This document shows, piece after piece, positions 3,941-52,436 of a stretch of 64,000 nt of DNA. The DNA comes from Spirochaetaceae bacterium UBA6076 (GTDB lineage: Bacteria > Spirochaetota > Spirochaetia > Treponematales > Rectinemataceae). The position numbers and the translations under genes were made by a program. The notes under the pieces were generated by a model. It made no database searches, was not told where the DNA came from, and worked only from the letters and a program-made list of their open reading frames with translations. Position 1 is the stretch's first letter, and each line of letters begins with the position of its first letter. The stretch is taken from contig DIXQ01000021.1 in the NCBI GenBank assembly GCA_002428725.1, forward strand, positions 27,097-91,096, read 5' to 3'.

Positions 3941-5242
3941 CTATTTATTCAGGCGCTCGAACTCGCGAAGAGTCTTGTTGCCGTCCAGAACCATCTTGTT
4001 GATGCCGTCTTTTACGCTGATTTTGCCAGCCAGGATATCTTCCCAGGTCTGGTCTTCGATTTCTCTGATGATGTTGAAATTGCCGAAGCGGATACCCATG
4101 GAATTGCCCGTGGGAGCGGCTCTTAGAAGCTGCTTGATGGCCACTTCAGGACCGGGGTTGGTTTTGTAGAAGCCCTGGGACTTGGTGAGGTCGTATGCCG
4201 CATTGGTAATGGGCAGATAGCCTGTGCTCTGGTGCCAGAAAGCCTGATTCTCCGGCAGGGAGATAAAGGCCATGAAATCGGCTACGCCCTTATAGTCTGC
4301 CTTGGGCTTGTTGTTGAACACCCAGAGGCTGGCGCCGCCGATGATGGAGTTCTGAGGAGCGCCCTTCACATCGGGATAATAGGGGAGGGTAGCCACGCCG
4401 AACTCGAACTTGCAGGTGTTCTTGAAGTTGGCATATCCGCCGATTGACTCGAAGTGCAGGCCGACTCTTCCGGAGGAGAAGAGGGGATTGGCTTTGTTCT
4501 CGCGTCCGCCATAGATGAATACGCCTGCTTTTGACAGATCGCTGATAGTCTGCAGGTGCTTGATGACGGTGTCGTTATTGAAGACAAGCTGGGTATCCAA
4601 GCCGTCAAAGCCGTTGTTTTTGGTGCCAAAGGGCAGGTTATGCCAGGCGGAGAAGTTCTCAAGCTGGATCCAGGAGATCCAGTTGGTGGTGAAGCCGCCT
4701 TCCATGCCTGATGCCTTCAGTTTCTTAGCCATTTCGAAGAACTCGGGCCATGTGACGGGGGGCTTCTCGGGATCGAGACCTGCCTTCTTGAAGGCATCCT
4801 TGTTGTAGTACATGACCGAGGTTGAAGAATTGAAGGGAAGGGATAGCATCTTGCCATCGGAGGTGGAATAGTAACCAGTGATGGTGGGGATGTAGACCTT
4901 GGGGTCGAACTTTTCGTTGTTTTCGGCCATGAGTTGGTATACCGGCTTTACGGCGCCCTTGGCGGCCATCATGGTGGCTGTGCCTACTTCGTAGACCTGG
5001 ATGATATGGGGCGCTTGGCCTGCGCGGAAGGCAGCGATACCGGCGTTCATCGTATCGCTGTAGGAGCCCTTGAACACTGGTACTACTTTGAAATCTTTTT
5101 GAGTTGCATTGAACCTATCCGCCAGAGCCTGTACCGTCTCGGCGTTCTTGCCGGTCATGGCGTGCCAGAACTCGATGTTCGTCTGGGCCCAGGCCCCTGC
5201 GATGGCGAGGAAGACCATTGCCACGAGTGCAATTTTCTTCAT
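3941..5242 (-). CDS. ugpB: Periplasmic sn-glycerol-3-phosphate/glycerophosphodiester-binding protein
   Basis: Signal peptide is MKKIALVAMVFLAIAGAWA/QT. This is followed by IEFWHAMTGKNAETVQALADRFNATQKDFKVVPVFKGSYSDTMNAGIAAFRAGQAPHIIQVYEVGTATMM, which is characteristic of UgpB. Confidence 0.85.
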   Translation of the reverse strand: MKKIALVAMVFLAIAGAWAQTNIEFWHAMTGKNAETVQALADRFNATQKDFKVVPVFKGSYSDTMNAGIAAFRAGQAPHIIQVYEVGTATMMAAKGAVKPVYQLMAENNEKFDPKVYIPTITGYYSTSDGKMLSLPFNSSTSVMYYNKDAFKKAGLDPEKPPVTWPEFFEMAKKLKASGMEGGFTTNWISWIQLENFSAWHNLPFGTKNNGFDGLDTQLVFNNDTVIKHLQTISDLSKAGVFIYGGRENKANPLFSSGRVGLHFESIGGYANFKNTCKFEFGVATLPYYPDVKGAPQNSIIGGASLWVFNNKPKADYKGVADFMAFISLPENQAFWHQSTGYLPITNAAYDLTKSQGFYKTNPGPEVAIKQLLRAAPTGNSMGIRFGNFNIIREIEDQTWEDILAGKISVKDGINKMVLDGNKTLREFERLNK

Positions 5243-6395: not shown

Positions 6396-9155
6396 CTATG
6401 GCGCTGGGGGAAGGGAATCAAGAACCCTTGCATGGGGGTAGCGTGTTTTGAGTATATCAATAAGCTCTCTCGCCTCATCCACTTGCCCATCGGCGATAAG
6501 GACGAGGCTTTTCAGCCTGTAGGCGTCAAAGACAAGTCGGTTGTCGTAACGGTCAAGGTTTTCTTTCGTTGCCCAGGGATCTATAAGCGCTAGGAGCTCC
6601 TGGCGCCGAAGCGGGTCGCCGGGATTGATCCGTCTTGCCTTGGCCAAGTTTCTAGCCAGCGCGGGATACCCTACCATAGTCTGGGCGGTCAGATATAAGG
6701 CGGTAGCGAAAAAAAGTACCAAACCAGCCACAAGGAGGGTTTTCCAACAGCAGCTCCTTTTGGGTTTCTTTTTGGCTATGATGAGCGCGAAGGGAATCGA
6801 AATCAAACTTAAGCCTATGCCGAGGATTTCCCATGCGGTCCTGCGGTAGTTCAGCTCGACTTGAGTGCCTTCAGGATAGATCAGCATAAAGCCGGGAGAA
6901 ATGGGGTAGATTTTCTCGTCCCCGGAAGATTGCCAGCCCGGGGCATAGGAGATTTTTATGTAATGGGGCTTTCCAGGTTCTGTTGTATTGAATCGAATGC
7001 TGAAGTTATCGACCTGCTCATCGGTGATTGCCGGGGGGGTTATACCCATCATGCTCCCATCTATTGCCTTGTCAGCATTAACCCTTGGACTTTCGGCAAG
7101 GTTTGGGGGACTAGCCAGGCGTGCGGCTCCCTGTTCTTCTAGGGCTTTCTTGGCCAAAGCGACGTTTCTGAATGCGTCATAGTCCGACCAGTGCCCGCCT
7201 GCATCGCTCAAGCGGGCTGTCAGGTCACGGTCCGCAAGGAGGGAGTTTACGAAGGGTGTGTCATAGAGTTCGTAATCCCTAAAAAATCGGTAATAATCGG
7301 TCCTGAATCCGCCTTTACCTCCATCGACCAGGGAGATCGCCTTTTCGGGCAGTACGCTGACATAGCTGTCAGCATACCCTCGATAGCTGAAAATCGAGAA
7401 CTTTCCCATGGAGGCATCGATCATGAAGTCGGGATGGGAAGCGAAGAGGCTCTGGATCGTTTCGGAGTGGGTTATGATGTATCGAGCGTTAAGTAGGTCG
7501 AATCGGGCAGACCAAGAGGCGGGGTCTATCTTCGAATAAATGCGTTCAGCCTCAGGATCTACCGGATTGGGCGAATAGGAACTCTGAAGATAGGTCGCAG
7601 CCCGGGCCATCATGCTTGAGCCATAGTGGATTCCCTCGGAGCTCGGATGCCCGGTAAAAAGGTAGAGGTTCTCGAATGCCCTTTCGGAGCCGAAATCCCT
7701 GTTGTCCCGCTGATCCTGTTTTTCCCAGAGAAATCGCCCATCGTCGGGGCTCCCTTTGTACCGCTGGGCAATGAAGCTGATAAACGGCCATTCTGCCTTG
7801 GCTTCGTAGCCGGAGTAATTCCACGAAAACCAACTTGGGGCGTTGCGGATCAAGGCCAAGCTGCCCGCGACGGATGCTCCTAGGCAGAGAAGGGTTATCA
7901 TGGAAGGAAGCCAGCCAATAAGCTTTTTAGCTTGGCGTGTCCTTTTCTGCCCCAAAGGCGGCAGTAAGCGCTTTGTAAGGCGCTCCGCCGCTGTATCCAG
8001 CAGTAGGGAAATGCCCAAGCCGCAGAAGAGCAGTGCGGGAGGAACAAAACGAATGTCGGGCATGCCCAGACCTGGAGCGATAAAGAACAAAAAAGCGCAG
8101 GCTCCCAAGGCGTAGAATAGAAATGCGGCAAGGCTTCTTTCCCTGGGCGAGTTTTTTCTCATCAAGGATAACAAAAAGAACAGGCATCCCGCCGGAGCCC
8201 AGATCAGAAGAAGGGTCTGGTTAGCGAAATCCTTGAAGGAACTGAACTGCCAGAGCATGCTTATGGGCTGAGCCCAGCCTCTGGTGGCTGCCATGGGCAA
8301 AAGCCAGAAGGCCATAAAAAGAAGAGCGCTGATGTAGGTGCTGAGTATTCGGGTGACGACAACGGCTTCCCGCCCCATGCCCGGTTTGGGGTGATTGTTT
8401 TGGGATTTTTTCTTCCAGAGCCGGGGAATCAGCGAAAAGGCGGGGAAGAGGGGCAGAAAAAAGGCGGCCATGAAAACGAAAAAATGACTTAGTCCGATGA
8501 GAGCAAGGATCAAGCCACTCAGTAGGCCTTTGCGCTTGGTTCGCCAATCCCTGACCAGGGAGGCGAAGAAAAGGGGAAGCAAGGCGATTGCCCAGGAGTA
8601 GCAAAACTCTCCGGCGAAGGTAGAAAGCCAGTTCCCTCCGAAAATCGAATAAGATTCGTTGAAGAGAAAGAGCAGGCTTGATGCGGCTGCTATTGCTCCA
8701 GCGCGCTTTCTGCCACTAATAGAAGAAGCGGCAAAAAACATGGTAAAGGGAAGGGCGAAACCTCCTGCAATTGTGACGATTTTCAGCGCCACGCTAAGCG
8801 GGACGATATAGCCTAACAGGGCTGCGGCCAGAAAGGGCAGGACAAAATAGTGCTGACCCTCAAGGTAGCCGAAAAAATTTCCCTGGCTGAAGCCGAACAG
8901 CCGCCCCCTGGGAAGGAATTCCTCTTTTAATGTCCGTAGTACCTGGTACCAGGATGCGCTGTCGCCTCCGGTCAGGATGTTGTCGGTCACTAAAAGCCGC
9001 AGGTCGAAACGGCTGAGCATGAATGCATAGACCAAGGCTAGGCAAATCCAGGACAAGAGATCCTCGATCTTGGTATTCGCTGGTGGTCTCAAGGTCGAGG
9101 GTCCTTGAACCAGCTTTTTGGTTTTTGTAAATGTCGGTTTACCAAGGGAAACCAT
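6396..9155 (-). CDS. Very large polytopic membrane protein, candidate GT-C-type (YfhO/ArnT-like) glycosyltransferase
   Basis: About 920 aa. The first ~470 aa contain at least 12 hydrophobic helices. These are followed by a ~330-aa soluble domain, one more TM helix, and a helical C-terminal tail. The gene lies directly downstream of the GT2 and small flippase-like genes. I took the start as Met14 (9155) to avoid overlapping the upstream stop at 9164; 9194 is also possible. The family assignment is inference. Confidence 0.5.
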   Translation of the reverse strand: MVSLGKPTFTKTKKLVQGPSTLRPPANTKIEDLLSWICLALVYAFMLSRFDLRLLVTDNILTGGDSASWYQVLRTLKEEFLPRGRLFGFSQGNFFGYLEGQHYFVLPFLAAALLGYIVPLSVALKIVTIAGGFALPFTMFFAASSISGRKRAGAIAAASSLLFLFNESYSIFGGNWLSTFAGEFCYSWAIALLPLFFASLVRDWRTKRKGLLSGLILALIGLSHFFVFMAAFFLPLFPAFSLIPRLWKKKSQNNHPKPGMGREAVVVTRILSTYISALLFMAFWLLPMAATRGWAQPISMLWQFSSFKDFANQTLLLIWAPAGCLFFLLSLMRKNSPRERSLAAFLFYALGACAFLFFIAPGLGMPDIRFVPPALLFCGLGISLLLDTAAERLTKRLLPPLGQKRTRQAKKLIGWLPSMITLLCLGASVAGSLALIRNAPSWFSWNYSGYEAKAEWPFISFIAQRYKGSPDDGRFLWEKQDQRDNRDFGSERAFENLYLFTGHPSSEGIHYGSSMMARAATYLQSSYSPNPVDPEAERIYSKIDPASWSARFDLLNARYIITHSETIQSLFASHPDFMIDASMGKFSIFSYRGYADSYVSVLPEKAISLVDGGKGGFRTDYYRFFRDYELYDTPFVNSLLADRDLTARLSDAGGHWSDYDAFRNVALAKKALEEQGAARLASPPNLAESPRVNADKAIDGSMMGITPPAITDEQVDNFSIRFNTTEPGKPHYIKISYAPGWQSSGDEKIYPISPGFMLIYPEGTQVELNYRRTAWEILGIGLSLISIPFALIIAKKKPKRSCCWKTLLVAGLVLFFATALYLTAQTMVGYPALARNLAKARRINPGDPLRRQELLALIDPWATKENLDRYDNRLVFDAYRLKSLVLIADGQVDEARELIDILKTRYPHARVLDSLPPAP

Positions 9156-41718: not shown

Positions 41719-42255
41719 ATGAGCAGGGCCTTTGTCGACGAGGACTCTGGCTCGGATGAAACCGATGACATGCACGAGATTCCCCTTCCGCTTGCCCCGG
41801 GGGTGAAAAATTACATGACCCCCGGAGGTGCGCTTCGAATGATGGAAGAGTTGCGTACCTTGATCGATGTCGAACGGCCCAGGGCGGCCGCGGCGCTGGC
41901 CGCTGCAGATGCCCAAGCCAAAGCAAGCCCGCTTAGAGAAATTTCCCGCATCGATAGACGAATATCTTACCTTAGCCGCATGAAGGCTTTTATGGAGGTA
42001 GTCCAGCCGCCTTCGAGCCTAGAGCGCATGGTCTTTGGCCTTGTTGCCCGGGTCGATGAAGGAAGCGATCAGGAAGTTTACTACCGCATCGTCGGTGTGG
42101 ACGAAAGCGATCCCGAGCGGGGCTGGGTAAGCTGGGCGAGCCCGGTGGCCAAGGCTTTGATCGGCAAATCGGTGGGCGATCTGGCGGTGGTTAAGCTTCC
42201 TCTTGGCGAGAGAAGAATGAAAATTATCGGTATCGAATACGCGAAGGAAGAATGA
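41719..42255 (+). CDS. GreA/GreB-family transcription elongation factor homologue
   Basis: The C-terminal sequence YYRIVGVDESDPERGWVSWASPVAKALIGKSVGDLAVVKLPLGERRMKIIGIEY matches the GreA/B C-terminal domain pattern. Confidence 0.7.
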   Translation: MSRAFVDEDSGSDETDDMHEIPLPLAPGVKNYMTPGGALRMMEELRTLIDVERPRAAAALAAADAQAKASPLREISRIDRRISYLSRMKAFMEVVQPPSSLERMVFGLVARVDEGSDQEVYYRIVGVDESDPERGWVSWASPVAKALIGKSVGDLAVVKLPLGERRMKIIGIEYAKEE

Positions 42256-43090
42256 AAGGAGCTCCAATTTCGACTGGGCCTCGAGGTATTCAAAGCGGTG
42301 GTAGTCCTTATGACGAACACCCAGATCCTTCCTGGGCTAGGCGGTCCTGGATTTCTCTGGATGGGGCTTGGACTTTTTCAAAATTAGGCGGGGCGAATAA
42401 GAACCGTGGGCTTACACAGCAAATACAAGTTCCTTTTCCGATTGGGAGCGAGCTGTCGGGAGTACGATCGAAGGATAAAGGATGCTGGACGTATTGCAGA
42501 AGATTCACTCTCCCCGATAAACCGAAAAGCCGCTGGATCCTCCACGTTGGAGCCTGCGATTACGATTTACCTGCCTTCGCGCAAAGCCTTTGAAGACTAT
42601 GAAGCCGAATTGCGTTCCCTCATCGCTAGGGACATGGCTCATCCCTCCTGCGTGATGAGGATTTTATTCAACGAAACCTGGGGTATCTGGGGCTTGTATG
42701 GCCAGGGCTTTCTATGAGGCTGTTAAGCGTAAGGATCCTGACGTCCTTCATAATTTTTCCGTTCTTAAGGTTCTGGCCTTCAACCTTTTTTATCAGGTGG
42801 CGACTAAAACCCGCAGTCTCTTCGTGAATCGCGATGCCAAGATCGATGGTACGCCACTCTTTTTAAGCGAATACGGGGGCTTTGGCTGGTACAAGGCTGA
42901 AGGGAATGCCGAAACCACCGAGCTTATCAAAGAATATACGAAGGATATTCTGGATTCAGGTCTTTTTTGCGGCTACTGCTACACCCAGCTCTACGACGTG
43001 GGTTCCGAGACCAACGGACTCTTGACCGCGGACCGCAGACCTAAGGTGGATACGGACGCGATGAGGAAAATCAACGATTATCGAGCATGA
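42252..43090 (+). pseudogene. Decayed family-2 glycoside hydrolase (beta-galactosidase/glucuronidase-like) gene
   Basis: GH2-like pieces sit in three different frames. Frame 0 carries ISLDGAWTF...QIQVPFP...ILHVGACDY (N-terminal sugar-binding domain). Frame 1 carries RDMAHPSCVMRILFNETWG (acid/base region). Frame 2 carries PLFLSEYGGFGW...NGLLTADRRPK (nucleophile region and C-terminus). Together they total about 280 codons, whereas GH2 enzymes are normally 600 aa or more. Confidence 0.6.
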
Positions 43091-43143
43091 CTTAATTACT
43101 GAGTTTAGACATTCTTTTCAGCGACATAGGACTAAAGAATTAT

Positions 43144-43476
43144 CTATGCTGTAGGTTCTGATAATCCCTTAGTTCCAATAAGACGCAAATTAATATTTCT
43201 CCATCCCGGCACGTGCATGCTCATGAGTGCTTTGAAGAGCCGGCCATGAGCCGGAATGCGCAAATGAAGAAGCTCATGAACAATGACGTAGTTCTGGAAG
43301 GATTCATCTTGATCAATGAGATCTTCCGCTAGTGTAATTGTGCCACCGGTGGAGCAAGAGCCCCACTTATTTTTCATTTTCTGAATTCGGATGGCGTGCG
43401 GATTTACATGAAGCGTGACCGACCACTGCAGCACTCGGCGCTTAAGCTCTTGGGTGGGGTAGGATGCTCTGCTCAT
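43144..43476 (-). CDS. Short DUF45/YgjP-like (M48-type) zinc metallopeptidase
   Basis: The sequences [18 protein letters not shown] and [19 protein letters not shown] (HExxH) support the call. The start ATG 43476 forms an ATGA overlap with the hsdR stop. The longer listed ORF start lies inside hsdR. Confidence 0.7.
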
Positions 43477-46412
43477 TCCTGAATGTTCCCGAAAAGCGAC
43501 TCTATAGTCTTTTCCACGATGCGGGTGCGATCCTCGAGCCCAAGGTTGAGCAGGGGTCGGTATAAAGCCGATCGAAGGCGGCGGCCTTCCTCCTGGTTTT
43601 TCGCGGCGTTCGGATAGCGCGCTAAAAGATGTTCGGCGTCCCGCGCGAATTCCATGGGGGAGATGCCAGCTGAATACAGGACTGGATCCTCGTGTAGCGT
43701 CCAATACGCTGAAAAAGCACGTTCGCACAACCCGCTTTCGGATGCCGATTTGAGCGCGGCTTCCCGTTCATTCGAGAGTCCGACCAAGCCGTCGAGAGCC
43801 TGGAGGGCGTCGATCTGCTTGTCGGAGAGATCTTTAACGATACGTTCGGCCCTCTCCTTGAGAGGAAGGAGGACGCTCGCCATGCCTGGATTATCTTCGA
43901 GTTCCTTTTGAAGTCCCCTTACAAGATTGAACACCTTGCTCTCGTCGGATCCTTTTTCTTTTCTGAGCGCTTCGATGGTTTTCGCATCAAAGGTGACAGC
44001 CCGCGTCAGGCGCGAAAGACCCGATTGCAGCGCACTCGATTCGATGAGTCGCTGTGTTTTATGGGCCAGGTCGGCGATGTAGCCTGTTTTATCGGAATAC
44101 GCGTTGCGCGTTACGCTATAGAGAGCGGTCAGGATTTTATAGTCCTCGACGTAGTCCCGAAGCTGGGGATCGGGGGAGAGAATTTCCCAGAGATTTTCGA
44201 TCTCCTTGTATGCTTCGTAGAAAGCTTTTCGCGTTTCGCTCTCAAGAAACCTGCCAAAGACGATACGCTCCAATGACTCATCGGGATTGTCTTTATCTAT
44301 CTCGGCATGATCCAGCCAGGAATCCCTCGCCATGGCCATTTTCTTGCCAAAATCCTCCCTGAGCAGATCGATGTCTTCGATGGCTCCTCCGACATCTTCG
44401 GAGTCAAAGCTGAGGGCTTTCTTGAGTTCGCGCAGGACGCCGACGAAATCCACGATGAGGCCGACCTTCTTCTCGACATCGTCGGCGTCGACATAGGGGC
44501 GATTTGCGCGGGCGAGGGCCTGAAGCAGGACATGATCGCGCATCGGCTTATCCAGATAGAGACAGTAGAGGAGGGGAGCGTCAAAACCTGTGAGGAGCTT
44601 GTCGGTGACGATGAGTATTTTCGGATCTTCCTTCGGCTTCTTGAAGAGAGCCTTCACGGTCGCCTCGCGTTCGCTATCCAGTTGGAGGCTTGCCACGAGA
44701 GGCCTGTCGATCGCGTCGCTCGCGTTTTCAGAATAGACTGCCTCAGACCAGGCCGGCGGCAAGTACCTATCCAAAGCAATTTTGTATTTGGCGCATGCCT
44801 CGCGGTTTACCGCGATGAGAAAAGCCTTGTATCCCAGAGGGAGTACGTTTTCCCTGAAGTGATTCGAGACGAAGGCGGCCACTTTCTCGATCCGATCATC
44901 CGCCGACAGGAAGGTACGCAAACCGACAGCCCGGTCGAGGACTCGGTTGAGTTCGTCGATATCCGTGATGCCTTCTGATCCCGCGAGTTCGAAAAATTCC
45001 TTGTCTAGTCGATCGGAGGGGACCGTCATGTCGCTAGGCGCGAGAACGTGCTTAATGGGAAGGGTCGTGCCGTCGGCGATCGATTCGACGATCGGGTACT
45101 TGTCGAGGTAGCCGTGCTCGTCCTGGGTGCCGAAAATCTTGAACGTGCCTTCTCCCTGGCTGTTGTTGGCGATAGGCGTTCCCGTAAAACCAATGATCGT
45201 GGAATGAGGCAAAGCCGCCATCAGGTATGTTCCAAGGTCCTTCGCGACCGATCGGTGGGCTTCATCGATGAAGACGAACACGTTATCGCGCCCGCAAGCC
45301 GCCCCAGGTATGCCGTCGAATTTCTGGATCGTCGAGATGACAAGCCCGCGGAAATCAGCGTCGATCAATGCTTGAAGGTCAGCCTTGCTGCTCGCTCGCC
45401 TCGTCGCAATATCCTGATTTTGTAGCTCTCCAAGAAGGCGCTCCACCCAGCGCGACAACTGCCCTTCCAAATCGATTCGATCGACAATCGTGATGACGGT
45501 GGCGCTCGAGAATCGTTGTTTGTCCTCGAGGATGATCCTAGCGGCGGTCAGGAGTGTAAAGGTCTTACCTGAACCCTGGGTATGCCAAATCAGTCCTCTT
45601 GTCCGCCCTGGATCGGCGCAGCGTTCGACGATAGCGTCTATTGCGCGTCGCTGGTGCTGGCGAAGAATGGACTTTTTCGTTTCCCCATCCTGGACGTAGA
45701 AGAGAATCCAACGTTCGAGGCTGCGGAGAAAATCGGTAGGCTCAAAGAAAGATTGGACCGCGAAGCGATAGCTCTCGTCGGGCGCTTGCTTCCATCTCGC
45801 CATGTCCCGCCGCGTGACGTTCCAGGTGACGCCATACCAGTAGTCGAGCATGTGGGTCACGTTAAAGAGCTGGGTTGTGCCGAGAAGCTCTGGCGTCTCG
45901 ATTTCGTAACGGCGAAGCTGTTTGACGCCCCTCTCGAGCGCATCCCCGGTTTTTGGGTTCTTGTGCTCGACGATGCAGACCGGAATGCCGTTCACGATAA
46001 AGATGAGGTCCGCGCGATTGGCCTTCCGCGCGGGCGGCTTTATCTGCCACTCCCAGCTGCACTGGAGAATGTTATTGGCCGCCGTGCCGAAGTCGATGAG
46101 TCTGACAGTCCGCTTGCAGTTCTCGGTTTCATCGTACCACTGCCGCTCGCCACGAAGCCATGCCAAGGCCTCGCGGTTGCCCTCGATGCTCGCGGGCAGG
46201 GCTTCCAGCGTCTCGACGATGGATCGGATGGAATCTTCGGAAAGCCAGGGATTGAACTCCGCCAGCTTGGACGCCAATTCGCCCCTGAAGAGCATTCCCG
46301 TCGTACCGCCGCGTTTGGCCTTCGCCGATTCAGGATCAATCGGTGCCCATCCCACTTCGGCGGCGTGGCGGATCATGGGAAATTGGGCGATTGCCTTTTC
46401 GTCTATTTTCAT
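43473..46412 (-). CDS. hsdR: Type I restriction enzyme R subunit
   Basis: The N-terminal nuclease motif is [18 protein letters not shown]. The helicase motif I is [10 protein letters not shown] and the DEAH box is FIDEAHRS. Length is 979 aa. Confidence 0.9.
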
Positions 46413-46963
46413 TTTTTACCGGCTTCAAAATCTTTGCCATATGGTGGGATCGATTCGCAGACTTCCAGAGTCGCCCTGTTCTGAATCGCGAGGCGGGCGA
46501 GGGCTCGATCGATTTTCGCCTTCTGTCTTTCGCTCAGCTTACTCTTGTTTGAGCTATAGAGGCGAAGAAAGTTTTCGGGAATTGAGACAAGTTTCAGAAG
46601 ACTATTGTGCGCGCCCGAAGGGATGACGCCTTGCTCATAGGAGTTGATGGTGAGGTCGCCGATGTCTAGGAGCTTCGCGAAGCTCTTCTGGCTAACGTCA
46701 TAGCGGGCGCGCATGGCTACGAGTTCCGCCGGGCCGATGATCCCATGGCGGGCGCGGTATACGGCTCGTGCCGATTCTATCTCGGCATCCATCTGCTCGC
46801 CGGACGCGAAGTCTTTCCCACAGGTTTCGCAGACCGAGAACACCGAGTCGAACTCCACGTCCTCGCCCCGGATCTTCATGGTCTCCCGCTCGCAGACGAT
46901 CCTGATATTCCGCATGGCCTCGCAGTGGGGACATGCGTCGCGAATCACTTCAAGCACACTCAT
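46409..46963 (-). CDS. MqsA-family antitoxin-like protein (YgiT-type zinc ribbon plus XRE HTH) with a ~50-aa C-terminal extension
   Basis: The pairs CPHC...CETC form a zinc ribbon. They are followed by [56 protein letters not shown]. This parallels E. coli MqsA (CPVC..CVHC; LSLTQKEAAEIFGGGVNAFSRYEKGNAQPHPSTIKLLRVLDKHPELL). Confidence 0.7.
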
Positions 46964-46972
46964 GTATCCACC

Positions 46973-47299
46973 TCAATCATGATAGGAGAGCACTTTAAGC
47001 CAGTCGGAGCCGCCCATCTGGAAAAGCTTGAGCTTGATGTAGAAGCGCGTTCCGAACTCGTCGTAGAAGAAAAACCACAGGCTCCCTTCAGACCCATCGT
47101 CATCACGTTCTGGTCCTTTCCAATAATGCTCGGAGCCAAGTTTAGCCAGCCGTTTGCAGATACCTTCGAATGAAAGACCATAGTGTTCCATCGCGTCCCG
47201 GTTCTTATCTCGATCGACGAGGAGGACCAGCCGATGATTCTTGAGCACCTCCCGCTTCCGCATCAGGAATACCTGGAGTCCCAAACCGGCGTCTGGCAC
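46973..47299 (-). CDS. MqsR-like mRNA interferase toxin candidate
   Basis: About 109 aa. DAMEHYGLSFEGICKRLAKLGSEHYWKG and YIKLKLF...LKVLSYH parallel E. coli MqsR ADELGLDFDGMCNVIIGLSESDFYKSM and YLKITVI..LIVSFKEK. The gene lies 9 nt upstream of the MqsA-like gene. I chose the start at the GTG 7 nt after AGGAGG (47307-47312); 47302 and 47335 are alternatives. Confidence 0.55.
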   Translation of the reverse strand: MPDAGLGLQVFLMRKREVLKNHRLVLLVDRDKNRDAMEHYGLSFEGICKRLAKLGSEHYWKGPERDDDGSEGSLWFFFYDEFGTRFYIKLKLFQMGGSDWLKVLSYHD

Positions 47300-47363
47300 C
47301 ACTATACCTCCTATTTTGGTATCAATCAATACCAAAACACAGTCACTTTTTAGGACTGCCCAC

Positions 47364-48545
47364 CTAATCCGCGGCTTTCCCGATAGCCGGTAAATCCAAG
47401 TCCGCGATCCGGATCTCCCCTGTCATCAGTTTATGAAGGAGGCTCTTGAAGAGTTCCTCGAGGAGGGTCTTCTTTTTCTTGTGCAGCTCGATCTTGCGGT
47501 CTATGGTGTCGAGGATCTCGACGGTTTCAAGCTGTTCGGGGAGGGAAGGTATAGCGACTAACCAAGGCGTTAAAAACTGAATATTTATATTTTTCTGTGT
47601 TCCCTTAGGAGCACGTCTATCCATTTCTGATTGCTGTGTTTGTAGGAAGTATTCAAGATATCTCGCATCTATCTCGGTTTGTGGGGTAATTGCAATTATA
47701 CTATCAGGGCAAGCACTATCGAATCCCAGAATTCCTGTGTAGCCGATATTGGCTGCAATGGTTATCAAGATGGTTCCTTTGGGGAATACGCGACTGATAG
47801 CCACACCTTCTTCGTTAAGGCTTTGAGTATAAGTATTTATCTTGCCCCCGGATTTAACAACATCACCGGTCTGGACAAATGGGATCTTTCCACCATAGAA
47901 GCGAGGTTCATTTCGCGGTCTATGAAGAAAACGACCTCGTTCAAGCAATGCTATACTTCCAAGAGGTAACACCTTCCAATTCTCCGGCACTAGCCCAATT
48001 TCTGTCTCCTTCTGAGCCTTGTTGTGGAGGCCTCGCGTGAAGAGTTCGCGCATCGCGGCGCGCTTGAGGGCAGTCGTGAGATCACAAGTCCGTTGTTCAC
48101 CATCTATATGCGACTCAATTATTGCTAGGATTTTTCCAATCAATTCCTGTTCCTCTTTCGGGGGGATTGGAATTTCTCGTTCCTTAAGAATGGATAAGTG
48201 GCGGTTGTAGCCTCGGCTTTCAATATCAAGGGCTTTACAGGCGAAGTAGAAGAAATGTGGATCAAAACGATCATCAGGGTAGAGTATTTGGGTACCATCT
48301 GCGCCGCGCACAAATGGGAAATCGATGTATTTTAAAATCCGAGTGTGGTCACCAAAGATAATTAACGGTAAAGGTGAATCAATAAGGCCGTTACGATTAT
48401 CTGTCCATCCTGCTATGAGATCTCGACCTTGGTCAATAATCGGAAAAGCACCACTAATTTTATAGTCTTTTGTCTGTAATTTGTTTGTCGGTAGTTGTAG
48501 AGGTTTAAGGCAAGAAGCGACTGAGACGGTCTCCCATTTGATCAT
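47364..48545 (-). CDS. hsdS: Type I restriction enzyme S (specificity) subunit
   Basis: Two target-recognition halves are separated by the conserved helix ALKRAAMRELFTRGL. The protein ends with LLEELFKSLLHKLMTGEIRI. The start lies 2 nt after the hsdM stop. Confidence 0.85.
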   Translation of the reverse strand: MIKWETVSVASCLKPLQLPTNKLQTKDYKISGAFPIIDQGRDLIAGWTDNRNGLIDSPLPLIIFGDHTRILKYIDFPFVRGADGTQILYPDDRFDPHFFYFACKALDIESRGYNRHLSILKEREIPIPPKEEQELIGKILAIIESHIDGEQRTCDLTTALKRAAMRELFTRGLHNKAQKETEIGLVPENWKVLPLGSIALLERGRFLHRPRNEPRFYGGKIPFVQTGDVVKSGGKINTYTQSLNEEGVAISRVFPKGTILITIAANIGYTGILGFDSACPDSIIAITPQTEIDARYLEYFLQTQQSEMDRRAPKGTQKNINIQFLTPWLVAIPSLPEQLETVEILDTIDRKIELHKKKKTLLEELFKSLLHKLMTGEIRIADLDLPAIGKAAD

Positions 48546-48547
48546 TT

Positions 48548-50392
<1,845 letters not shown>

Positions 50393-50398
50393 ATTTGC

Positions 50399-50427
50399 AA
50401 TATATGTTATAATAATATCTATGTCAA
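50399..50427 (-). promoter_or_regulatory. Near-consensus sigma70-type promoter abutting the hsdM start codon (leaderless configuration)
   Basis: Minus strand reads TTGACA (50427-50422), a 17-nt spacer, TATATT (50404-50399), GCAAAT, then ATG (50392). There is no Shine-Dalgarno sequence. Confidence 0.5.
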
Positions 50428-50442
50428 TCGTATTTTAAGCTA

Positions 50443-51018
50443 TCAGTTTTGGTTTTCGAAGTAGAGATTGTATTTTTTCCAGAAATACTTGGGATTAGGA
50501 ACATCGTCTCGGCCTTCGATGACAGCGACGGCGTCGCGGATCTCCTGTAGGTTTGCCCGACCCTCGTCGTACATGAGCTTGAGAAGATCGATGGTGCTTG
50601 TGACGGGAATGTCGAATTCAGCCGCCAACGATGTCATCGGTCCATCGTCTGTGACCACCACCGCCCCAAAGGCGAGGGCATAAACTAGACAGAAATTATC
50701 CACGGGCGAGGTGCTGAGCAGGAAATCTTGAGCCGTTTCTCTAATATATTCGAGGTTTGTCTCTATTTCCCTGCGCTTTTCCTGGCAAACGCGGAGATAG
50801 TGGCTGCGATCTTGCGAATAGGTTTCTGAACTCGCCCAATGGAATTTGCTCGATAGTCGGGAATTGCGCCTGAGTTCATGATCAAGATCAGGAACGACAC
50901 GGAGCCTGCAAGGTGGAGATCCGAAAACAGTCGCGATTATCGGGTGAAAGGAGTCCGCCACCCTGAGATAGGTGTTGGTATCGAGCAGAAACAGGCGCTC
51001 ATCGCCGGACGAGGGCAT
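50443..51018 (-). CDS. PIN-domain nuclease candidate
   Basis: Four spaced acidic positions fit the PIN pattern: LFLLDTNTY, DLDHELRR, SPVDNFCL and VVVTDDGPM. I took the start as Met12; it overlaps the upstream gene by about 20 nt. Confidence 0.6.
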   Translation of the reverse strand: MPSSGDERLFLLDTNTYLRVADSFHPIIATVFGSPPCRLRVVPDLDHELRRNSRLSSKFHWASSETYSQDRSHYLRVCQEKRREIETNLEYIRETAQDFLLSTSPVDNFCLVYALAFGAVVVTDDGPMTSLAAEFDIPVTSTIDLLKLMYDEGRANLQEIRDAVAVIEGRDDVPNPKYFWKKYNLYFENQN

Positions 51019-52129
51019 CGAGGATCGCCTTCGCGTCGGCGGGGCCGACACCGAGACTGGCCGCGACTATACCTTCCGATTCCCCATGCTCCGCTACGTA
51101 GGAGCGAAGGGCTGAATAGAATGGGCTCTTGAAGATTTCTTCCGATATGCGGATCAGATCGATTGCGTTCGGAGTATCCGAAAAAAAGATGCCTGAACTT
51201 ACTAGGCCATATTCTTTATTAAAATTAGTGTTGGCACCAAAAATCGCCTTGCCTAAGAGTTCTTCGCCTCCTCGCGAATGAGCGATATAATCTATTCGCT
51301 TCGCAATAGTAACGGGCGATACGATAAGTTCCCGCGCGACAGCGAGGACACGAAGTATTCGCGCGCCCATATCGGGGATCTCTGAAAGTCTATCAAATTC
51401 CTCGATAGCAATATTCTCGGGAACGAGTATAGCGGAGGCAAACGCGTCAGAGAACTTTTCCGCGTCTGTGCTATTGAGTAGCCCAGATGTCTTCGAATGA
51501 CCGAGCTCGTGGAGCATCCAGAACTTGAAATCGAACAGCTTGGTGTCCAGATTTAGATAGACGAGCGTAGTCTGAGAGTCCGGCAGATAGACGTGGAGAG
51601 CGTTGTCGAGGCTGTCTTTTTCGCCCCAGAGTACGGGGACCAGAACCGTCTTGAGCTCGCCGAAAAGACCAATGATGTCCTCGAAATGTACCTGTTTTCC
51701 GACGCAGCCCATGGCAGCCCGGGTTTCCAGGGCGGCTTCTTCTACGTAGGCCGCTTCGACGCGCGGCGATATAAGGCGAGCTGGCGCGCTAAGACGACCG
51801 AAGGGGAGGTATGGAACTAGAAGGTTAGCGGCCTTTCCCATACCCTTGGCACGTTTCTCGTCCTCAGCCTTCACCTTCGCGTTTCCGTGTTTTCTGTAAG
51901 CTACGATAGGCTCCGCGATTCCACTACTTGAAACGAGCTCCGAATAGCTAAGGGTGAGGAGCTTGCCAAGGCGTAGCAACAGAGCAGGGCGGGGGAATTT
52001 CTTACCCTTGAGCCATTCTGAAACAATGGTTTTCGATACGCCTAGCGAAGCGGCAATAGCGGCTGCATTCAGCCCCAATTCCTGCATAGCCTGCTCTATT
52101 CGATCAAGGGAAAGTCGTTTGTCTGCCAC
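50999..52129 (-). CDS. XRE-family HTH fused to an ImmA/IrrE (COG2856-type) zinc metallopeptidase domain
   Basis: The N-terminal HTH is LGLNAAAIAASLGVSKTIVSEWLKGKKFP. The HExxH motif is in FWMLHELGHS, near residue 215. The start is GTG at 52129. Confidence 0.7.
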   Translation of the reverse strand: MADKRLSLDRIEQAMQELGLNAAAIAASLGVSKTIVSEWLKGKKFPRPALLLRLGKLLTLSYSELVSSSGIAEPIVAYRKHGNAKVKAEDEKRAKGMGKAANLLVPYLPFGRLSAPARLISPRVEAAYVEEAALETRAAMGCVGKQVHFEDIIGLFGELKTVLVPVLWGEKDSLDNALHVYLPDSQTTLVYLNLDTKLFDFKFWMLHELGHSKTSGLLNSTDAEKFSDAFASAILVPENIAIEEFDRLSEIPDMGARILRVLAVARELIVSPVTIAKRIDYIAHSRGGEELLGKAIFGANTNFNKEYGLVSSGIFFSDTPNAIDLIRISEEIFKSPFYSALRSYVAEHGESEGIVAASLGVGPADAKAILDALVRR

Positions 52130-52135
52130 GCATAA

Positions 52136-52164
52136 AATGTATCAGGGGAGTAAACTTTCGTCAA
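52136..52164 (-). promoter_or_regulatory. Candidate sigma70-type promoter abutting the start of the HTH-ImmA/IrrE gene
   Basis: Minus strand reads TTGACG (52164-52159), a 17-nt spacer, TACATT (52141-52136), TTATGC, then GTG (52129). This is the same geometry as the hsdM promoter. Confidence 0.4.
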
Positions 52165-52230
52165 CTTTAAAATTATTCTTGTCCTGTTTGCTTAATAACT
52201 TGCAGAATTGCTCAGGTTAAAATGGTAGAC

Positions 52231-52436
52231 GCCCAGTGGGGGTAGCGGAGAAGACCGGAGGGCGGGCCGCTGGGCAAACAGCAGCGCTACAAGGCTATCT
52301 GCAGTATGCTAAAAGTGGGTGCCCGGCGGCCCGCCCGAGGACTTTGGAGCGAGGGGGAGCAGCGTAGGTACCAGCGGGCGTTTGTCAGTTACCGCGGCTG
52401 GTAGGCCGGCTTGATACAAAGCCTCGCTCCCCCTCT
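52231..52436. other. Unassigned GC-rich, highly structured intergenic element (candidate small RNA or structured 3'UTR of serS)
   Basis: Stems verified by hand. A 17-bp stem pairs 52260-52276 with 52320-52336 (16 Watson-Crick pairs plus one G.U on the plus strand). A 10-bp perfect stem pairs 52351-52360 with 52426-52435. That stem encloses 52369-52375/52397-52403 and 52408-52412/52419-52423. No coding potential is apparent. Confidence 0.3.

Follow-up and report, generated by a model that had tools for sequence, protein, structure and literature searches.

Embedded genes are frequent in type I restriction-modification (R-M) loci, and PrrC in particular is almost exclusive to them (bioRxiv 10.1101/2024.01.29.577857). 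A larger assembly of this kind is the RRDM island of enteropathogenic Escherichia coli (RptR, type I R-M, DarTG2 and M48; Zhang et al., NAR 2025, PMC12255303), an anti-phage island with the gene order hsdM-hsdS-DarTG-hsdR-M48. It is repressed by a small helix-turn-helix (HTH) protein, and its authors called the gap between hsdS and hsdR a likely hotspot (PMC12255303). Among toxin-antitoxin (TA) systems, "three-component" systems combining HTH-DUF955 (ImmA) proteins with DUF4411-type PIN proteins were described by Matelska et al. (2017, PMC5499597), who also connected PIN toxins with type I R-M. ImmA-type antitoxins also define RosmerTA, in which they pair with PIN-like toxins (PMC10440598). 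The same study validated the MqsR:PanA pair of Bacillus fungorum, in which a zinc-binding domain, alone or with an HTH, neutralizes the toxin and Panacea is a proposed sensor (PMC10440598). Here we describe a block of eight consecutive minus-strand genes, flanked by a broken GH2 gene on one side and serS on the other, in a 64,000-nucleotide stretch of Spirochaetaceae bacterium UBA6076 (contig DIXQ01000021.1, positions 27,097 to 91,096; hereafter the window), and compare it with these systems.

In our reading the block is a horizontally acquired mosaic defense island at a recurrent hotspot downstream of serS in a Treponemataceae/Rectinemataceae-type spirochaete, composed of two independent modules of known kinds; we place the probability of this reading at about 0.72. 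Module A (approximately 52215-50434) consists of an HTH-ImmA/IrrE peptidase gene and a PIN toxin gene, and module B (approximately 50430-43078) is a type I R-M cassette that carries an MqsR/MqsA-like pair and ends in an M48 peptidase gene (Table 1). The open reading frame (ORF) list and the reading of each junction place the eight genes, between a decayed GH2 gene and serS, exactly where an earlier note on this DNA had put them. The labels it gave to the genes proved right as well, on library scans for six of the proteins and on structure prediction for the MqsR-like and PIN proteins.

Table 1. Features of the inserted block and their positions in the window
Feature	Position	Strand	Basis or remark
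Whole inserted block	43078..52215	-	9.1 kb, bounds relative to the empty site of L001
YgjP-like (DUF45/M48) zinc peptidase, short, 110 aa	43144..43476	-	PF01863 91.8 bits (cutoff 26)
HsdR restriction/translocase subunit, 979 aa	43473..46412	-	TIGR00348 418.7 bits (cutoff 284.55)
MqsA-family antitoxin, CxxC...CxxC zinc-binding domain and HTH, 184 aa	46409..46963	-	TIGR03830 77.6 bits (cutoff 61.8)
MqsR-fold (RelE-superfamily) RNase toxin (predicted), 108 aa	46973..47299	-	Sub-cutoff PF15723 match; AlphaFold2 model and fold match
9-nt inverted repeat with 6-nt spacer	47314..47337	-	Arms invariant in 7 homologous loci
HsdS specificity subunit, two target-recognition domains, 393 aa	47364..48545	-	Methylase_S 5.2e-29
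HsdM methyltransferase with fused N-terminal XRE-type HTH, 614 aa	48548..50392	-	N6_Mtase 3.9e-73
Putative promoter of the R-M cassette, TTGACA-17-TATATT	50399..50427	-	11/12 consensus matches
PIN-fold (DUF4411-like) RNase toxin (predicted), 191 aa	50443..51018	-	Predicted fold and invariant acidic residues
HTH and M78 (ImmA/IrrE) zinc peptidase, RmrA-like antitoxin/regulator (predicted), 376 aa	50999..52129	-	HTH_3, Peptidase_M78, PADLOC RmrA
Promoter-like site of the ImmA-PIN unit, TTGACG-17-TACATT	52136..52164	-	9/12 consensus matches and TG extension

Module B follows the order of the RRDM island, hsdM-hsdS-[two-gene TA]-hsdR-M48, and in both an HTH regulator lies at the 5′ end and hsdM is preceded by one strong promoter; the sizes are 9.8 kb for RRDM and 7.3 kb for module B. 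The two differ in their cargo, which is an MqsR/MqsA RNase pair here and the DarT/DarG DNA ADP-ribosyltransferase pair in RRDM, and in their regulator, an XRE-type HTH fused to HsdM here and a separate 9-kDa RptR there. The block also lacks the TAGCTA promoter repeats (none are found at 50393-50445, ahead of hsdM) and flanking insertion sequence elements, and has an extra ImmA-PIN pair upstream. The combined wiring, which the earlier note did not recognize as a described system, does not hold up as a new one: the block falls into two separable modules, one with the RRDM layout and the other of the HTH-DUF955-PIN type already published in 2017. Every arrangement in the window has a published precedent, and the block is an ordinary mosaic defense island. 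What is new is the presence of MqsR/MqsA in the hsdS-hsdR slot, the host phylum, and a serS hotspot with swappable TA pairs; mildly new are the proximity of this PIN family to type I R-M loci, as counted below, and the confinement of the MqsR lineage, in the contexts recovered, to the hsdS-hsdR gap behind an invariant 24-nt palindrome. The locus is a clean, well-bounded example, from the little-studied phylum Spirochaetota, of two general rules of defense islands, namely that the hsdS-hsdR gap of type I R-M operons serves as a cargo slot and that a fixed chromosomal hotspot, here downstream of serS, gathers interchangeable TA modules. Unless a functional coupling of the modules is shown, current understanding is unchanged by it.

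A SerS scan with one genome per species returned 80 loci (L numbers designate the loci compared), nearly all labelled as spirochaetes and mostly of Treponemataceae or Rectinemataceae type. None of the 80 related spirochaete loci has any of the eight island genes near serS. In the closest relative, L001, whose SerS is 93% identical at the amino acid level, the site is empty and the order is prmC-prfA-serS, GH2 (607 aa, intact), greA-like, p155, yraN, rplS and trmD. DNA homology between the window and L001 ends at approximately 52216-52230 on the serS side and resumes at approximately 43077-43080; because it breaks off there, the insert can be set at approximately 43078-52215 (9.1 kb). The block can be read with confidence as a genuine insertion, a genomic island whose edges are mapped to within a few nucleotides. 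Synteny of the interval from the greA-like gene to serS was the comparison the earlier note had proposed for defining the insertion boundaries, and the empty site and the absence of the genes from all 80 loci support its view of the block as an island. The intact gene of L001 likewise bears out the decay of the window GH2 gene (42252-43090), which lacks approximately 860 nt internally, with a breakpoint at approximately 42563-42568, and whose last codons are altered at the island junction (NE* in L001, NDYRA* in the window).

How the insertion came about has left few traces. As the earlier note had reported, there is no mobility gene in the block, for which the eight genes that fill it leave no room, there are no tRNA genes in the 64-kb window, and no convincing direct repeats flank the block. 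The Rfam scan gave no match, att-like repeats of the serS 3′ end are absent from the window and from L081, L175 and L177, and a DNA search with the whole island against plasmids and phages was empty. GC content ranges from 0.44 to 0.63 inside the block and averages near that of the flanks, approximately 0.53; base composition is uninformative here. The note had left the origin of the island open; it is less so than stated there, as the block lies at a recurrent hotspot downstream of serS.

The evidence for the hotspot comes from relatives that hold other cargo after serS. L081 and L082 have the order serS, immA-PIN, greA-like ... trmD, with no R-M genes, and their PIN homologue (P0003) is 84% identical to that of the window. 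DNA homology between L081 and the window spans exactly 52223-50434. Identity over this stretch is 80.6%, as against 80.7% for the flanking serS. Because the ImmA-PIN pair stands alone between serS and greA in these two loci, module A is clearly separable from the R-M cassette. Other relatives carry the cassette without this pair: L175 and L176 have serS, an Xre-RES pair and HTH-hsdM-hsdS-(small genes)-mqsR-mqsA~Panacea-hsdR-ygjP, and L177 and L178 have serS, a ParE pair on the opposite strand and HTH-hsdM-hsdS-mqsR-mqsA~Panacea-hsdR-ygjP (111 aa). The HsdM homologues of these four cassettes are 83-84% identical to that of the window. Since cassette B thus occurs after serS with Xre-RES or ParE in place of ImmA-PIN, the region downstream of serS can be regarded as a recurrent defense hotspot with swappable cargo. 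At least five occupancy states are found after serS: empty, ImmA-PIN only, ImmA-PIN with R-M, Xre-RES with R-M, and ParE with R-M. Two more distant relatives are L083 and L091. In L083 the ImmA-PIN pair is bracketed by a direct repeat that spans the last 120 nt of serS and ends at the stop codon (5004-5123 and 7000-7119, 90% identical), and a similar serS fragment follows PIN in L091 (635-832). These duplicated serS 3′ ends look like att-type integration scars.

The other edge of module B can be placed in the same manner. The window, L175, L177 and the gammaproteobacterial L179 share the promoter stretch TTGAC...TATAACATATATTGCAA-ATG of hsdM, and the sequence further upstream cannot be aligned. 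Because conservation across the four lineages stops here, the left edge of the cassette is placed at approximately 50430, a few nucleotides at most from where the ImmA-PIN module ends (homology to L081 stops at 50434). The R-M family to which the cassette belongs is very widespread and often transferred. HsdM has more than 8000 homologues at E<1e-50; the 120 best nearly all have the HTH-HsdM architecture and are 71-94% identical, those from named genomes of other phyla being 73-76% identical. In Gammaproteobacteria the cassette occurs with no embedded pair, in the order integrase-YhcG-RadC-HTH-hsdM-hsdS-hsdR-ygjP (119 aa)-HamA-helicase, with HsdM 73%, HsdR 68.5% and YgjP 61% identical to the window proteins and in at least three flanking contexts (L179, L180, and L181/L182, the last two with a common upstream flank). 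A side observation is that the HamA and helicase genes, a Hachiman-like arrangement, lie directly after this R-M family on an integrase-bearing island (L179-L182:16383-19390).

All R-M subunits in the window have the expected domains. In addition to N6_Mtase (PF02384), HsdM contains HsdM_N (PF12161, 2.1e-21) and HTH_3 (8.6e-8) and matches PADLOC MTase_I at 3.2e-140. Its motif IV reads NPMW, which was considered as a possible defect and rejected, as NPMW is present in 115 of the 120 best homologues and is the norm of the family. HsdS matches Methylase_S (PF01420) in two stretches and PADLOC Specificity_I at 3e-68. HsdR contains HSDR_N (3.5e-21), SWI2_SNF2 (9.4e-50), a T1R_D3-like domain and the DEAH motif. 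The last gene of the block encodes a short form of the YgjP-like M48 peptidase, which covers profile positions 114-204 of PF01863 and retains the HELLH motif. The same short form, 111-119 aa, directly follows hsdR in L177 and L179-L181, and L175 has a homologous M48 ORF after hsdR, for which the gene call spans only 78 aa. The translational coupling of the M48 gene to hsdR hints at a possible role in the control of HsdR.

The gene embedded after hsdS encodes a divergent protein of the MqsR type. Its match to PF15723 (MqsR_toxin) scores 22.6-23 bits, under the cutoff of 26.2. An AlphaFold2 model of high confidence (pLDDT 90.2) retrieves chains of E. coli MqsR (3HI2) at Foldseek ranks 1-2 (TM 0.71-0.75, rmsd 2.7-3.0 Å, probability 1.00; top match TM 0.75, rmsd 2.7 Å), and the next match has a TM of 0.19. 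A library-wide profile search shows that the wider MqsR-like family comprises 613 clusters at E<=0.001; among 101 of its sequences (the window protein and 100 of the best matches), 63 match PF15723 at E<=1e-3 and none matches another family. The profile of these 101 sequences aligns, weakly (E = 0.044), with the full length of 3hi2_B and places a conserved K-G-P opposite the FYK stretch of MqsR and an invariant Y-I-K opposite VYLK, the stretches that hold the proposed catalytic K56 and Y81 of MqsR. Identity between the window toxin and E. coli MqsR is 16-17%. Among solved structures, the single protein retrieved a chance match only (Lyn kinase, E = 1.2) and a profile of its close homologues retrieved nothing. 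Profile comparison with an E. coli MqsR sequence was uninformative (probability 1.7%). A protein in the representative library, P0055 (2021 aa), has an odd multi-repeat architecture in which seven separate stretches match the MqsR-like profile.

The antitoxin gene lies downstream of the toxin gene in tight linkage, and its translation contains the motifs CPHC and CETC. The window pair thus agrees with MqsR/MqsA and with MqsR:PanA in having the toxin gene first, an MqsR fold, and an antitoxin with CxxC...CxxC and HTH, and its relatives carry Panacea. It differs from MqsR:PanA in that its antitoxin lacks Panacea, and from both in its place inside a type I R-M operon, with which it probably shares a transcript. 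Antitoxins of 184 aa occur in the window, L168 and L171-173, versus 335-347 aa with a C-terminal Panacea in L170, L175, L177 and L178, the longer form having the architecture of the B. fungorum antitoxin. Over the first 183 aa of the MqsA-Panacea fusion at L170:2932-3945, which has 337 aa in all, identity with the window protein is 75%. L170 had been considered as a replacement of an MqsA by a Panacea antitoxin, an idea rejected because direct comparison shows its antitoxin to be the MqsA-like protein of the window extended by Panacea. Panacea, the proposed sensor domain, was either lost in the lineage of the window or gained in the relatives that carry the fusion.

The close family of the toxin comprises 10 clusters, and in every recovered context it follows hsdS and is followed by the MqsA-like gene and hsdR; it is seen nowhere else. 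In this the pair resembles PrrC/EcoprrI and other embedded cargo (rlo genes), in which an RNase effector also lies between hsdS and hsdR. PrrC, by contrast, is a lone anticodon nuclease that contains an ABC-ATPase domain and is kept in check by the R-M complex itself, whereas the MqsR-like toxin has its own protein antitoxin, so that dependence on R-M is not required. The slot itself is nested, because in L175 the hsdS-mqsR gap (L175:12717-14500) carries further small genes; among these extra genes are a PDDEXK_3 gene and a BrnA antitoxin gene on the opposite strand.

Within the hsdS-mqsR gap, 8 nt ahead of the mqsR-like ribosome-binding site, lies the palindrome TTTTGGTAT-TGATTG-ATACCAAAA (47337-47314), 24 nt in all with perfect 9-nt arms. 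The arms are invariant in 7/7 homologous loci, where the neighboring intergenic sequence has diverged and the toxins are 60-65% identical, and as RNA the palindrome folds into a hairpin (z = -3.4). It is a candidate regulatory site that may be an operator of the MqsA-like protein or an RNA hairpin, two roles that the arms do not distinguish because they show no variation. The core of the candidate operator, GGTAT-N6-ATACC, differs from the E. coli MqsA palindrome.

The first gene of module A encodes a protein with HTH_3 (4e-6) and Peptidase_M78 (3e-4) matches and the HELGH motif. Eleven PADLOC RmrA models match it, with a lowest E-value of 5.3e-12 (residues 9-249). For the PIN protein there is no library match at E<=0.01, PADLOC included; its match to DUF4411 (PF14367; E 0.035, 14.3 bits) is below the cutoff of 23.5. 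In an alignment of 31 sequences (the window protein and 30 of 39 collected homologues) weak matches to DUF4411 are found for 14 members (best 4.8e-5) and to PIN for 8, and D13, E48, D107 and T123-D124-D125 are invariant in all 31. Searches with the sequence found no match among solved structures and none among phages. The AlphaFold2 model (pLDDT 92.5) leads to PIN domains only among its leading fold matches, including VapC, FitB and HARP (protein-only RNase P), with probability ~1.0. The protein is taken to belong to a divergent sister group of DUF4411, with a predicted PIN fold and four conserved acidic residues. Like RosmerTA (RmrT/RmrA) and the HTH-DUF955-PIN systems, module A opens with an HTH and ImmA/IrrE (M78, HExxH) gene whose end overlaps the small toxin gene that directly follows, the predicted ImmA-like protein matching RmrA and the toxin being weakly DUF4411-like with the four acidic residues of its PIN fold. 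It differs from RosmerTA in that the toxin has no PADLOC RmrT match and remains below the DUF4411 cutoff, and in that the pair abuts a type I R-M operon. Module A would thus resemble RosmerTA in the way it works, yet is not a catalogued member.

The gaps and overlaps given by the earlier note were all recovered in the junction reading. The mqsA-like/hsdR and hsdR/M48 junctions are ATGA overlaps (46409-46412 and 43473-43476), the mqsR-like and mqsA-like genes are separated by 9 nt (46964-46972) and hsdM and hsdS by 2 nt (48546-48547), and the ImmA-like and PIN genes share 20 nt (50999-51018). The gap between hsdS and the mqsR-like gene, previously given as roughly 60 nt, is sharpened to 64 nt with the start at GTG 47299, because GTG 47302 reads GTA in three homologous loci and a conserved AGGAGG motif precedes GTG 47299. 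Translational coupling, which had been proposed for all six genes from hsdM to the M48 gene, strictly applies at the two ATGA junctions alone.

The top sigma-70-like site of the region in a consensus scan is the one that ends 6 nt ahead of the hsdM ATG, a conserved and nearly leaderless putative promoter, and a second, putative promoter ends 7 nt ahead of the GTG start of the ImmA-like gene. No minus-strand terminator-like site was found within the block. The genes therefore likely form two transcription units, each with its own promoter-like site (11/12 matches ahead of hsdM and 9/12 ahead of the ImmA-like gene), as the earlier note had supposed. A further promoter-like match, at 47329-47301, is unlikely to be an internal promoter, because its -10 element directly adjoins the start codon, which is conserved, and because the N-terminal helix encoded there belongs to the predicted MqsR-like fold.

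From the families involved, a mode of action can be proposed for each module. In module A, the HTH-ImmA/IrrE peptidase would serve as the antitoxin and autorepressor of the DUF4411-like PIN RNase; a phage cue would cause self-cleavage or inactivation of the HTH-peptidase, the PIN RNase would be freed or de-repressed, and the infection would be aborted. In module B, the R-M enzyme would methylate host DNA and cut unmodified incoming DNA as a classical first line of defense. The HTH fused to HsdM may autoregulate the operon, as may the HTH of the MqsA-like protein, which would restrain MqsR with its zinc-binding domain and is a probable ligand of the conserved palindrome. Once transcription or translation stops, as when infection shuts down host gene expression, the MqsA-like antitoxin, being labile, would decay and the MqsR RNase would arrest the cell. 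The overall outcome would be abortive infection, with stabilization of the island as a side effect.

Several points weigh against this account of a horizontally acquired island of two independent modules. The comparisons show the gene content, the folds, intact catalytic motifs, the insertion boundaries, the separability of the modules and the recurrence of the arrangement, but all biochemical activities, and any defense phenotype of the block, are read from what is known of the protein families. No PADLOC toxin model matches the PIN protein, so that an automatic caller may miss the RosmerTA assignment, and both the MqsR-like and the PIN protein score below the Pfam gathering cutoffs. No integrase, direct repeat or compositional signal accounts for the arrival of the modules. 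Finally, the strong enrichment of hsd genes beside ImmA-PIN pairs could mean that the modules are not fully independent.

This enrichment emerged from a metagenome scan that added 80 PIN loci. The ImmA-like gene is directly upstream of PIN in 78 of 82 loci, and the remaining 4 have just 125-305 nt upstream of the PIN ORF, too short for an ImmA-like gene. Iterated profile searches with the window HsdM, HsdS and HsdR detected hsd-like genes in 23/82 loci; where the flank measures 4 kb or more the count is 16 of 39, versus none of the 80 serS control loci (1.2 Mb), a control set not matched for defense-island context, with several of the PIN loci being near-duplicates. The enrichment of ImmA-PIN near type I R-M loci is real. 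It involves about a dozen arrangements with different type I families. The pair is embedded between hsdS and an EcoEI-type hsdR in L110 (probably also in L106), is directly upstream of hsdM and co-directional with it in the window, the P0010 contig and an E. coli block, is convergent with fused M-S genes and hsdR in L085, L122, L151 and others, is divergent in L159, and elsewhere lies several kilobases from R-M genes. The E. coli block (L174; IncF plasmid NZ_OX030731.1, 26715-44124) is mobile, resembles the window block in its overall wiring and reads three tyrosine recombinases-hypothetical-ImmA-like-PIN-HTH_17-hsdM-hsdS-RecQ-DprA-hsdR. Its ImmA-like and PIN proteins are 40% and 36% identical to those of the window, and its R-M proteins just 27-28%, so that the ImmA-PIN pair has been joined to unrelated type I systems. 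The segment comprising the ImmA-like, PIN and HTH_17 genes and the start of hsdM is present, at >=99% identity, in 54 of 5426 complete E. coli genomes (1%).

These associations argue for an alternative in which the TA modules are wired to the R-M enzyme, so that the MqsR-like RNase, the PIN RNase or both are released, in the manner of PrrC/EcoprrI, when a phage anti-restriction protein disables R-M, or in which the HTH-peptidase controls R-M expression. The 16/39 versus 0/80 contrast, the dozen or so arrangements with different type I families, including the embedding in L110 and the E. coli block, the restriction of the 10-cluster MqsR lineage to the hsdS-hsdR gap behind an invariant palindrome, and the near-exclusive presence of PrrC in type I R-M loci (bioRxiv 10.1101/2024.01.29.577857) are all consistent with it. 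However, 23 of the 39 long-flank loci, among them L081 at the very same locus, have no hsd-like gene nearby, and the pair lies in many orientations and at many distances relative to the R-M genes, as would fit simple clustering within defense islands. The slot upstream of hsdM carries unrelated TA pairs in relatives, the controls and near-duplicates limit the comparison as described, and the MqsR contexts may share a single cassette lineage and so count as roughly one event. We consider such wiring unlikely, if the most serious of the alternatives. It is similarly doubtful that ImmA/PIN, and perhaps MqsR/MqsA, are dedicated companions of type I R-M that release an RNase after sensing that the restriction complex has failed or been inhibited, or that govern the expression of the complex. 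If they were, the single example of PrrC/EcoprrI would be generalized to protein TA modules from spirochaetes to E. coli. The frequent placement of ImmA-PIN pairs beside or within type I R-M loci, well above that at the control loci, is a testable lead. E. coli, an easy organism for experiments, has a near-identical architecture in 1% of its complete genomes.

Alternatively, both TA pairs could be mainly addiction modules that stabilize the island at a recombination hotspot and give little or no direct protection against phage. The slot between serS and hsdM is always filled by some TA pair (ImmA-PIN, Xre-RES or ParE), the island persists with no mobility genes, and a passage in PMC5499597, citing Mruk and Kobayashi (PMC3874152), gives the classical view of type II TA and R-M systems as selfish elements. 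However, activity against phage has been measured for RosmerTA-type ImmA pairs and for several RNase TA pairs (PMC10440598), the RRDM island, embedded pair included, is likewise protective (PMC12255303), and the locus is clearly unstable over evolutionary time, L001 being empty and L081 lacking the R-M cassette. We hold this to be improbable, and more so than the wiring of the TA modules to R-M. That the block was ancestral to this spirochaete group and lost in relatives would fit the equal divergence of the ImmA-PIN pair and serS between L081 and the window (80.6% and 80.7%) and the occurrence of the R-M cassette after serS in lineages with serS just 77% identical, but it is very improbable given that most of the 80 serS loci, including the closest, lack all eight genes (many with serS adjoining the p155 gene), and given an R-M family still 73% identical in Gammaproteobacteria on integrase-bearing islands, and the integration-type scar of a duplicated serS 3′ end beside the pair in L083 and L091.

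Outside the island, downstream of serS, the window has a GC-rich inverted repeat at 52260-52336 with 17-nt arms and a 43-nt loop. This repeat is conserved with L001; it could represent the terminator of serS or else a repeat element.

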